From Candidatus Moraniibacteriota bacterium (GTDB lineage: Bacteria > Patescibacteriota > Minisyncoccia > Moranbacterales > GCA-2747515): a stretch of 44,924 bases of DNA. The position numbers and the translations under genes are program-made. The notes beneath the pieces were generated by a model. That model saw nothing but the letters and a program-made list of their open reading frames with translations, made no database searches and was not told where the DNA came from. Of the stretch, positions 1,067 to 21,318 are shown piece after piece. Location: NCBI GenBank assembly GCA_030592425.1, contig JAUVJK010000002.1, positions 1 through 44,924 on the forward strand, written 5' to 3'. Positions within the stretch are counted from its first letter, which is position 1; each line of letters begins with the position of its first letter.

Positions 1067-1432
1067 GGGACCGTAGCTCAGCGGTTAGAGCGACCGGCTC
1101 GACAAGTTCATTCTAAATTGTGTTAAGAATTATGTAATTCAGTATGAATGTTCTTAGCAGGGCTGCCTGAAAAGTAATTTTCTGGTGAATATCTGTCAAA
1201 TTCGGGGAAATCTAAAATTTGATCGCATGATCAGATCAAGACAATCCCGAGCCAATCCATATATCCTACTGATGTGTGGCAGGTGTAGAGACTAGACGGC
1301 AGACACCCTTAATTCGTTCATCAAATGAAGGGTGAAGGGATAGTCCAGCTCACAAATTTGAAAAAAGTTGCGAAAGCAATAGTGAGACGCATAACCGGTT
1401 GGTCGCAGGTTCAAATCCTGCCGGTCCCACCA
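1067..1432 (+). tRNA. Intron-containing tRNA with CAT anticodon (elongator Met or lysidine-dependent Ile2); exons 1067-1099 and 1390-1432
   Basis: The joined exons give GGGACCGTAGCTCAGCGGTTAGAGCGACCGGCT|CATAACCGGTTGGTCGCAGGTTCAAATCCTGCCGGTCCCACCA, a perfect cloverleaf with loop CTCATAA. G1-C72 and the absence of a GGG/CCC anticodon stem argue against an initiator. CCA is encoded. Confidence 0.85.
1100..1389 (+). ncRNA. Group I intron (IC3-like) in the tRNA anticodon loop, no ORF
   Basis: Follows U1099 and ends in G1389. Core blocks are GTCAAATTCGGGGAAATCTAA (1195-1215), CCCGAGCCAATCC (1246-1258) and GGTGTAGAGACTAGACGGCA (1282-1301). GNRA-capped hairpin at 1166-1185. A GGCT guide at 1161-1164 can pair with exon GGCU. 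Confidence 0.85.
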
Positions 1433-20352: not shown

Positions 20353-21318
20353 TTACTTAGTTGTAAACTTTACTGTATCACCTTTTCGTTGCATTTTCAA
20401 GCCTCTCATCTTCACATTTTGATGCTTGTTCTTAATACTTGCAATTGCCTTATGAAGCTCTGCAATATTACGCGATGTAACGTTAATGTCATCTTTTTGG
20501 AGATATACAATAATCTGATGCAAGCGGACACGCTGCAAAGCACGGTGACATGAACAATAACGCTTTGCAGAAAAAGCCACTGTAACCTCACAGAATTCAG
20601 CGGGAAGGTACTTTCTCGCCATTTCCTCAAGGTAATTATAATCAACAGAGACCTGGTCTGCTGTTACGGAAAGGGTTTTGATAATCTCCCTATTAAATCC
20701 TTTTTGTAAGAAAGGAAGGAGTTCATTTCTAATATGATTACGTGTGAAAGAATTATCACTATTTGTTTTATCCTCTGCGAAAGTAATATGATGATCTTCA
20801 CAATACCTCAGAATATCCTTCCGTTGAACTTTTAAGAATGGTCGAATCACCGCACTACGACGATGTCGCATCCCTTGCAATCCGTTTAGACTCGTCCCAC
20901 GAAGAAGATGTAGCAGTAATGTTTCAGCCTGATCATTTGCATTATGAGCAACGACAATATGATCAGCTTTCTGCGTACGTCGGACCTCTTCAAAATATGC
21001 ATAACGTTGCTTTCTCCATAGAGCCTCAGACCCCTCCAACCCTTCGTTCTTGATCATTTTTACATGAAGAGGGAGGTGATACGCCTCACAAGTAGCTCTT
21101 ACATTATTCTCATCAGCATCAGAAGCTTCTCCGCGCAATCCATAGTTAACGTGCGCAACAACGAGCATCAGATTTTCTTTCTTTGTTAATTGTGCCATGA
21201 GGTTAAGGAGGCACATGCTGTCAGCGCCACCAGAAACACCAATGAGCAAGCTATCACCACGAGACCACAAATGCTCTTGCGCATTGATATTTTGTACAAA
21301 TTTTAGAAGATTCTTCAT
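20353..21318 (-). CDS. tilS: tRNA(Ile)-lysidine synthetase (short form)
   Basis: PP-loop LIGVSGGADSMCLL. 321 aa. Confidence 0.85.
   Translation of the reverse strand: MKNLLKFVQNINAQEHLWSRGDSLLIGVSGGADSMCLLNLMAQLTKKENLMLVVAHVNYGLRGEASDADENNVRATCEAYHLPLHVKMIKNEGLEGSEALWRKQRYAYFEEVRRTQKADHIVVAHNANDQAETLLLHLLRGTSLNGLQGMRHRRSAVIRPFLKVQRKDILRYCEDHHITFAEDKTNSDNSFTRNHIRNELLPFLQKGFNREIIKTLSVTADQVSVDYNYLEEMARKYLPAEFCEVTVAFSAKRYCSCHRALQRVRLHQIIVYLQKDDINVTSRNIAELHKAIASIKNKHQNVKMRGLKMQRKGDTVKFTTK

Follow-up and report, generated by a model that had tools for sequence, protein, structure and literature searches.

A group I intron of a catalogued type between U33 and C34 of a tRNA(CAU) gene in Candidatus Moranbacteria, with an apparent remnant of an antisense HNH gene

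The window, by which we mean the whole 44,924-nt stretch of DNA analyzed here (contig JAUVJK010000002.1 of an ultra-small Candidatus Moraniibacteriota bacterium), opens with a cluster of tRNA genes, Leu-GAG, Val-TAC and Phe-GAA, followed after a gap by Gly-GCC. The gap is filled by a split tRNA gene on the forward strand. Its 5' exon (1067-1099) comprises tRNA positions 1-33 and ends in U33; this is followed by an insert of 290 nt (1100-1389) and by a 3' exon (1390-1432) that runs from C34 to A73 and includes an encoded CCA at 1430-1432. When joined, the exons fold into a 76-nt cloverleaf with the anticodon loop CU|CAUAA, as a sequence-only reading of this DNA had claimed; the insert, described there as 290 nt that follow a U and end in G, has exactly these flanks. 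At its default settings, ARAGORN did not find the intron-split tRNA(CAU) in the window. With introns allowed (option -i), it found the split tRNA and reported 'Intron Insertion Position(33-34)', the same position that had been proposed from the sequence.

Since C1100 and C1390 are the same nucleotide, the junction is uncertain by exactly 1 nt, an ambiguity that the sequence-only reading had already recognized. Only the left placement (1099|1100...1389|1390) yields U(-1) together with a terminal guanosine (omega G, G1389); the other gives C(-1) and a terminal C. All 31 homologous intron copies have U(-1) and omega G, with CATAAC after the G. A true junction one nucleotide rightward (34/35) would leave the mature tRNA identical, and one C(-1) intron type, Leu.3Cg, has been reported (Williams 2020, bioRxiv 10.1101/2020.01.27.920355). 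However, such a junction would replace omega G by a terminal C, which is unprecedented, and would run counter to the 31 copies; moreover, U33.G1161 already occupies the splice-site wobble position, with C1100-G1160 as the next pair. We therefore consider the rightward junction extremely improbable. The intron at 1100-1389 sits between U33 and C34 of tRNA(CAU).

The split gene is the only one in the window with an encoded CCA, as had been noted before, but two other, intronless tRNA genes encode the full CCA in the genome as a whole. All 35 intronless tRNA genes of the genome have C after the discriminator base, and in 29 of them this is 'CA' (in the window at 998-999, 848-849, and 1608-1609), compared with a CA dinucleotide frequency of 7% in the genome. 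N73-CA is also the 3' end of most homologous tRNA-Ile2 genes in the order, making it a conserved partial 3' end. A link between the encoded CCA and the intron was considered and dropped, CCA being absent from most homologous intron-bearing genes.

The insert is a group I intron. An Rfam search, which the sequence-only reading had suggested as a check, matched Intron_gpI (RF00028) to positions 1142-1370 over the full model (positions 1-253) with a score of 83.9 bits (E 4.8e-20; gathering score 50 bits), and this is the only RF00028 match in the genome (0.91 Mb in 97 contigs, 91% complete). The three sequence blocks on which the group I assignment had first been based lie at 1196-1216, 1246-1258, and 1282-1301. 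The internal guide sequence, which had been given as GGCT at 1161-1164, is indeed present there, but is better written as GGGCUG (1160-1165). As read from the sequence, it yields a continuous P1 helix in a single register, 1096-1100 with 1160-1164: C1100-G1160, U1099.G1161, C1098-G1162, G1097-C1163, and G1096.U1164, with the U.G wobble at the 5' splice site lying inside the helix. A further pair, C1095-G1165, is optional and competes with the closing pair of P2. None of the 31 copies departs from GGGCTG or from the exon end GGCT|C, so that no covariation can be counted in P1.

For the remainder of the core, we counted base pairs in a structure model comprising P2, P3, P4, P5, P5a, P6, the P7 pseudoknot, P8, and a three-helix P9 domain, using 30 aligned cores. 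The P2 hairpin (1165-1186) carries a GUAA (GNRA) loop at 1174-1177, and seven of its nine pairs are changed on both sides. The 5' strand of P3 (1192-1197) is paired with 1298-1303 in 100% of cases, with compensatory changes in two of six pairs. The segment 1201-1251 contains P4 (1201-1207/1245-1251), which is near-invariant, P5 (1211-1212/1240-1241; compensatory changes in one of two pairs), and P5a (1217-1220/1233-1236; four of four). In the hairpins P6 (1257-1279) and P8 (1304-1334), seven of seven and five of six pairs, respectively, are compensatory. P7, the guanosine-binding helix and pseudoknot, has its 5' strand at 1288-1293; positions 1288 and 1290-1293 pair with 1342-1346 and leave A1289 bulged, and the five pairs are invariant in 30/30 sequences. 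The P9 domain (1349-1386) consists of an outer stem (1349-1353/1382-1386) around two GAAA-capped hairpins (1357-1366 and 1367-1380), all three helices showing compensatory changes. The L2 GUAA loop and both GAAA loops are conserved among the aligned copies.

Over the 30 sequences, 97.0% of the cells of this 59-pair model are paired and 33 pairs are changed on both sides; none of 500 shuffled controls scored as high on any measure, and sliding the partner strands by 1-3 columns lowered the paired fraction to 38-48%. As P4 and P7 never vary, covariation is silent on these two helices. RNAalifold, when given the core lacking the 5' exon, folded the guide GGGCU against the 3' strand of P7 and placed a small hairpin in J6/7-P7; both features were rejected and exchanged for the P7 pseudoknot before pairs were counted. 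The homologues thus share a conserved P3-P9 fold that includes the P3/P7 pseudoknot and the bulged P7 nucleotide. When aligned with Ile2.5Ug introns from Rhodocyclaceae and Chitinibacter and with an fMet.2Ug intron from Planctomycetia, the window intron displays the compact core of subgroup IC3, lacking P5abc, and shares the blocks J3/4-P4, J6, P7-P3', and J8/7; the P7 block is identical to that of the Azoarcus type. The Rfam score, the covariation among the 30 homologues, and the block identity with the Rhodocyclaceae introns together uphold the central proposal of the sequence-only reading: the anticodon loop of a CAU tRNA is interrupted by a group I intron of the Azoarcus-like IC3 kind.

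The host tRNA had been described as an elongator Met or Ile2 tRNA. The Ile2 half of this description is favored by the tRNA body and the tRNA set, while the role of elongator Met is filled by a separate gene: two further CAU tRNAs are encoded on contig C77, one with an initiator-like body and a mismatched 1:72 pair, the other an ordinary elongator. When compared with E. coli references, the body of the split tRNA scores 44 for Ile2, 30 for Met, and 24 for fMet, and its D-arm, variable loop, and T-arm follow the pattern seen in the betaproteobacterial tRNA-Ile2 hosts of the Azoarcus-type intron. A tilS-type gene (PF01171 domain, 184.1 bits, the single match in the genome) lies on the minus strand at 20722-21249, 19.6 kb away, in agreement with the 19 kb stated earlier for tilS. 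TilS is the enzyme that would turn C34 into lysidine. In 334 long ORFs, AUA accounts for 8.7 of every 1000 codons, and the 91%-complete assembly yielded neither a tRNA-Ile(UAU) nor a second CAU candidate for AUA. The host could instead be a second elongator tRNA-Met, since the CAU anticodon by itself cannot separate Met from Ile2, and the published seed alignment includes a 'Met.2Ug' type (Williams 2020, bioRxiv 10.1101/2020.01.27.920355). This we judge very unlikely in a genome that already has an initiator-like and an elongator tRNA(CAU), that uses AUA codons, and whose tilS would otherwise be without a substrate; the body scores and the betaproteobacterial Ile2 pattern also speak against it. 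Because of the separate initiator and elongator tRNAs, the similarity of the body, the single tilS-type gene, and the use of AUA, the host tRNA is probably of the Ile2 (lysidine) type. As the only one found in the assembly, it is probably also the sole AUA reader of the organism, although an intronless tRNA-Ile2 or a tRNA-Ile(UAU) may lie on the missing sequence.

Between the 5' splice site and the guide, the window copy has a stretch of 60 nt, for which an extra hairpin of about this size had been claimed. The length was right, but the stretch appears to be the remnant of a gene rather than an unusual element. In 18 of the 31 intron copies, it measures 405-411 nt and contains an intact antisense ORF of 120-128 aa, with its stop codon 8 nt away from the 5' splice site; in four copies the ORF is frameshifted, and nine copies are without it. 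The encoded protein displays an N-terminal CxxC...CxxxC zinc ribbon and the motif CxxC..FHH..N..CxNCHxELH. The intact ORF of one relative (G039) matches the Pfam HNH family (PF01844) with 23.9 bits, just above the cut-off of 21.4; such a match is found in 20 of 30 family members, and a profile of the ORF family gives weak matches to solved HNH nicking endonucleases and McrA (E 0.004 and 0.043).

In the window, the L1 loop of P1 (1101-1159), when read on the minus strand, retains the last 11 codons and stop of this gene at 1108-1143 and, at about 1144-1159, the region that preceded its lost start codon (ATG). Translation of the reverse strand yields ..HTELHNS*HNLE*, compared with CHTELHNPQHNLE* in the intact G039 ORF, so that 1108-1143 gives TELHNS*HNLE* against TELHNPQHNLE*. 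An intact endonuclease ORF is absent from the window intron; what is left of it has an internal stop. The 60-nt L1 aligns at its two ends to the two ends of the 409-nt L1 of G039, and the hairpin that it can form is ordinary in folding energy (z -1.0; 32 of 200 shuffles fold as well).

An alternative reading would see the 60 nt as a selected structural element, either a P1 extension or a peripheral docking hairpin. An imperfect hairpin closed by P1 can indeed form, and an L1 of similar length, about 65 nt, is found in L169, an Ile2.2Ug intron from another phylum. Against this, one half of the stretch shows homology to the 3' end of the antisense HNH gene and the other to the flank upstream of that gene, the fold of the stretch is unexceptional, and the ORF-less copies, with L1 lengths of 12, 13, 35, 49, 52, 53, 60 (window), 66, and 70 nt, differ in their deletion end points. 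We consider a selected element highly unlikely. Given the alignment at the two ends, the residual codons, and a fold no better than that of shuffled sequences, the extra hairpin is, as judged from its sequence, the deletion scar of a 121-aa antisense HNH gene and not a new structural domain. The ancestor would have been a mobile intron with a 121-aa HNH homing-endonuclease gene on the opposite strand in its P1 loop, of which the window copy would have lost about 350 nt and kept 60. With the HNH gene lost, the window intron is probably no longer mobile on its own.

The association between the antisense gene and this intron type extends far beyond the order. An HMM built from the Moranbacteria ORFs found antisense matches in 17 of 17 long Ile2.2Ug introns among the matches listed, including introns from Chloroflexota and Gracilibacteria, and in none of eight long fMet.2Ug introns among the same matches. 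The protein family comprises at least 247 clusters in public data, nearly all of 121-131 aa and mostly annotated as hypothetical. The Williams 2020 preprint mentions that introns above about 400 bp may hold genes and is silent on the antisense HNH gene and on remnants of it (bioRxiv 10.1101/2020.01.27.920355), and a limited literature search found no description of the family as the endonuclease of the Ile2.2Ug intron. The antisense HNH gene may thus be new, in a modest sense. We lean slightly toward viewing the Ile2.2Ug intron and the 121-aa HNH gene antisense to it as parts of a single mobile element, one that passes between only very distantly related bacteria as well as within lineages. 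Its putative homing endonuclease would target the DNA that encodes the anticodon arm of tRNA-Ile2, and the window copy would then represent a stage in which the ORF is lost and the ribozyme kept. If this is true, the intact, frameshifted, and deleted copies display the homing cycle of gain, decay, and loss and constitute a clean natural series of the life cycle of a homing endonuclease at one tRNA site, and a small, uncharacterized HNH family with a defined putative target is indicated.

One genome bin (G067) contains two split tRNA-Ile2 copies on separate short contigs, G067:C1 (L036) and G067:C10 (L069). One has an intact HNH gene (intron of 639 nt) and the other has none (279 nt), and their cores are nearly identical. 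This pair probably reflects strain heterogeneity within one bin, in which forms with and without the ORF coexist.

Loss of the ORF does not appear to be coupled to decay of the ribozyme, for eight other ORF-less copies keep the core. Where at least 27 of the 29 other sequences agree on a column, the window copy deviates only by a 4-nt insertion in the P8 loop, and all modeled helices are intact. The conservation pattern of the intron suggests a ribozyme under selection, and the window copy bears no apparent sign of decay. Since none of the highly conserved core positions has changed, we consider it very probable that the window intron is competent for splicing. It could alternatively be a decaying, non-splicing relic in a tRNA pseudogene, with AUA read by a gene in the 9% that the assembly lacks: the window copy no longer has its endonuclease gene, and the assembly, in 97 contigs, is 91% complete. 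However, a relic would hardly be expected to combine zero substitutions at highly conserved core positions, a full set of helices, and exons that give a perfect cloverleaf; the same core is kept by the other ORF-less copies, in other genomes, and a DNA search of the genome found no second copy. A relic is therefore distinctly unlikely. For the reading as a whole, namely a splicing-competent IC3 intron at 1100-1389, between U33 and C34 of tRNA-Ile2, that is descended from a mobile, HNH-carrying form, the sequence evidence gives us a high degree of confidence.

These observations suggest the following course of splicing in vivo. In the precursor, tRNA nucleotides 30-33 and the first intron nucleotide would pair with GGGCUG (1160-1165) to form P1, with U33.G1161 marking the 5' splice site. 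A free guanosine, held in P7 beside the bulged A1289, would attack after U1099. G1389 would then enter the same P7 pocket, C34 would displace C1100 opposite G1160, and the exons would be ligated to give the loop CUCAUAA. Such a replacement of C1100 by C34, in a P10 of at most one or two pairs, would explain why C is found at both sites in the 31 copies. Because C34 is the first nucleotide of the 3' exon, TilS would convert it to lysidine only after ligation, which would result in AUA reading. A bacterium with a 0.9-Mb genome thus appears to depend on a ribozyme for maturing what is possibly its only AUA-reading tRNA.

For genome annotation, the consequence is that a tRNA split in this way is invisible to default tRNA finders, so that the genome would score as lacking an AUA decoder. 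Allowing introns does not always help: in related copies, ARAGORN often misplaces the junction and calls Leu, Ser, or Thr. We rejected its junctions in these relatives (for example 'tRNA-Leu caa', ggctcaa|...CAT|aacc), which give A(-1) and a terminal U.

To place the window copy among its relatives, we searched 319 genomes of the order (Candidatus Moranbacteria, part of CPR/Patescibacteria) with the DNA of the intron core. The intron was found in 30 of them, representing 21 of 106 genera and at least eight families, and the core matches always run into the same 3' exon. The 31 copies compared above are from this order. In most of 40 close relatives, the tRNA gene is unsplit, the matches to the two exons adjoining each other directly. 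The intron tree has little resolution, with good support for 5 of its 27 branches. On this tree, the window copy groups with a clade of another family (f2; support 92/75), apart from the other copies of its own family, and family labels are partly, though not fully, clustered (12 changes; the minimum is 7, and shuffling gives a mean of 19). The distribution of the intron is sporadic, and the tree is compatible with vertical descent combined with some transfer and many losses; given its resolution, we stop short of firmly claiming that the window copy was acquired horizontally.

Group I introns are common throughout this lineage. Group I matches occur in 156 of the 319 genomes, with up to five per genome, and many of them lie in tRNA-Phe(GAA) or in a tRNA that is read as Asn or Thr. 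The syntenic tRNA cluster of G039 carries introns in both tRNA-Phe and tRNA-Ile2; the intron in its tRNA-Phe(GAA) is inserted after U33, belongs to type Phe.2Ug, and scores 86.9 bits (L022, G039:C16, 1750-2010, minus strand). The tRNA-Phe(GAA) of the same cluster is intron-bearing in other relatives as well, for example G209; in the window, tRNA-Phe (926-998) is without an intron. A further intron family (L023, L040, L047, L049, L032, and L041) allows two junctions that both obey the U(-1)/omega G rule, placing the intron either at 33/34 of a Thr(UGU) tRNA or at 35/36 of an Asn(GUU) tRNA. The tRNA body (U1-A72, G73) is Asn-like, and the ARAGORN calls disagree between loci. The tRNA genes of the Moranbacteria lineage are, in short, heavily parasitized.

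Beyond the order, we scanned one genome per species for the exact P7-P3' block and typed the tRNA introns by asking which of the eight loop positions gives U(-1) together with omega G. The block was found at 120 loci or more, in Betaproteobacteria, Chloroflexota, Planctomycetota, Omnitrophota, Acidobacteriota, several CPR lineages, and others, and 102 of the loci listed lie in tRNA genes. Among these 102, CU|CAUAA is the commonest insertion site, with 65 introns (35 in Ile2-type and 30 in initiator bodies); 25-26 lie at CUCAU|AA, all in Ile2 tRNAs of Betaproteobacteria, and four at Leu CUU|AAAA. A review statement (PMC4033280) that places most bacterial tRNA introns at 37/38 was set aside, as it clashes with the exon lengths of the Azoarcus precursor and with the mapping by Williams. 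That mapping recognized four classical types, Leu.3Ug, Arg.5Ug, fMet.2Ug, and Ile2.5Ug, added 17 new ones, and reported 0.49 interrupted tRNA genes per genome in assemblies from unnamed phyla (Williams 2020, bioRxiv 10.1101/2020.01.27.920355); Lui et al. (PMC8172020) likewise mention group I introns in tRNAs of circularized CPR genomes. The phylogenetic informativeness that the sequence-only reading attached to an intron in this kind of genome is accordingly weaker than assumed, as such introns are common in the lineage and already on record in uncultured phyla. Nor can the 33/34 site be called unusual, being the classical tRNA-fMet site, the site of the published Ile2.2Ug type, and that of 65 of the 102 introns listed.

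Compared with the small HNH nicking and McrA-type proteins (PDB 9qgx, 9qgv, 6ghc; PF01844), the ORF product of the relatives shares the HNH beta-beta-alpha-metal motif and the zinc-binding CxxC pairs. The similarity is weak (E 0.004 to PDB), however, and the family, which has no characterized member, is set apart by its own N-terminal zinc ribbon and by its antisense position in the P1 loop.

The Azoarcus-type intron resides in the same host tRNA species and has the same compact IC3 core; its Rhodocyclaceae representatives match the window intron exactly or almost exactly in the P3-P4, J6, P7-P3', and J8/7-P7' blocks, in line with the near-identity to Azoarcus that the sequence-only reading had pointed out. 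In contrast, its insertion site lies three nucleotides further 3' (CUCAU|AA, 36/37), so that the 3' exon measures 40 nt instead of 43 nt, and its guide is GUG instead of GGGCUG. At 205 nt, compared with 290 nt, it has a short L1, a simpler P9, and no trace of an endonuclease gene, and among the matches listed it is confined to Betaproteobacteria.

The cyanobacterial tRNA-fMet intron (fMet.2Ug) shares the CU|CAUAA site, the IC3 core block, and a sporadic occurrence, and some copies carry an endonuclease gene; its host is the initiator tRNA, whereas that of the window intron is probably of Ile2 type. The endonuclease I-Ssp6803I is an example, which we take to be a PD-(D/E)XK enzyme. It is encoded by the Synechocystis copy of this intron (Biniszkiewicz et al. 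1994; Bonocora and Shub 2001).

The closest counterpart is the Ile2.2Ug type, represented in the published seed alignment by Gba28.Ile2.2Ug, alongside Sba135.Met.2Ug and Mba55.Phe.2Ug (Williams 2020, bioRxiv 10.1101/2020.01.27.920355). Like it, the window intron follows the second nucleotide of the anticodon loop (CU|CAUAA), with the same host tRNA, the same U33|C34 site and junction GGCU|CA, and the same U(-1) and omega G, and nothing essential differs between them. Among the matches listed, at least 35 Ile2.2Ug introns are found in assemblies of CPR, Chloroflexota, Planctomycetota, and Bacillota. With type, site, and frequency in uncultured phyla already on record, the knowledge of group I introns as such is unchanged; by its sequence, the window intron adds one more example to a catalogued type, and such introns are frequent in its lineage.
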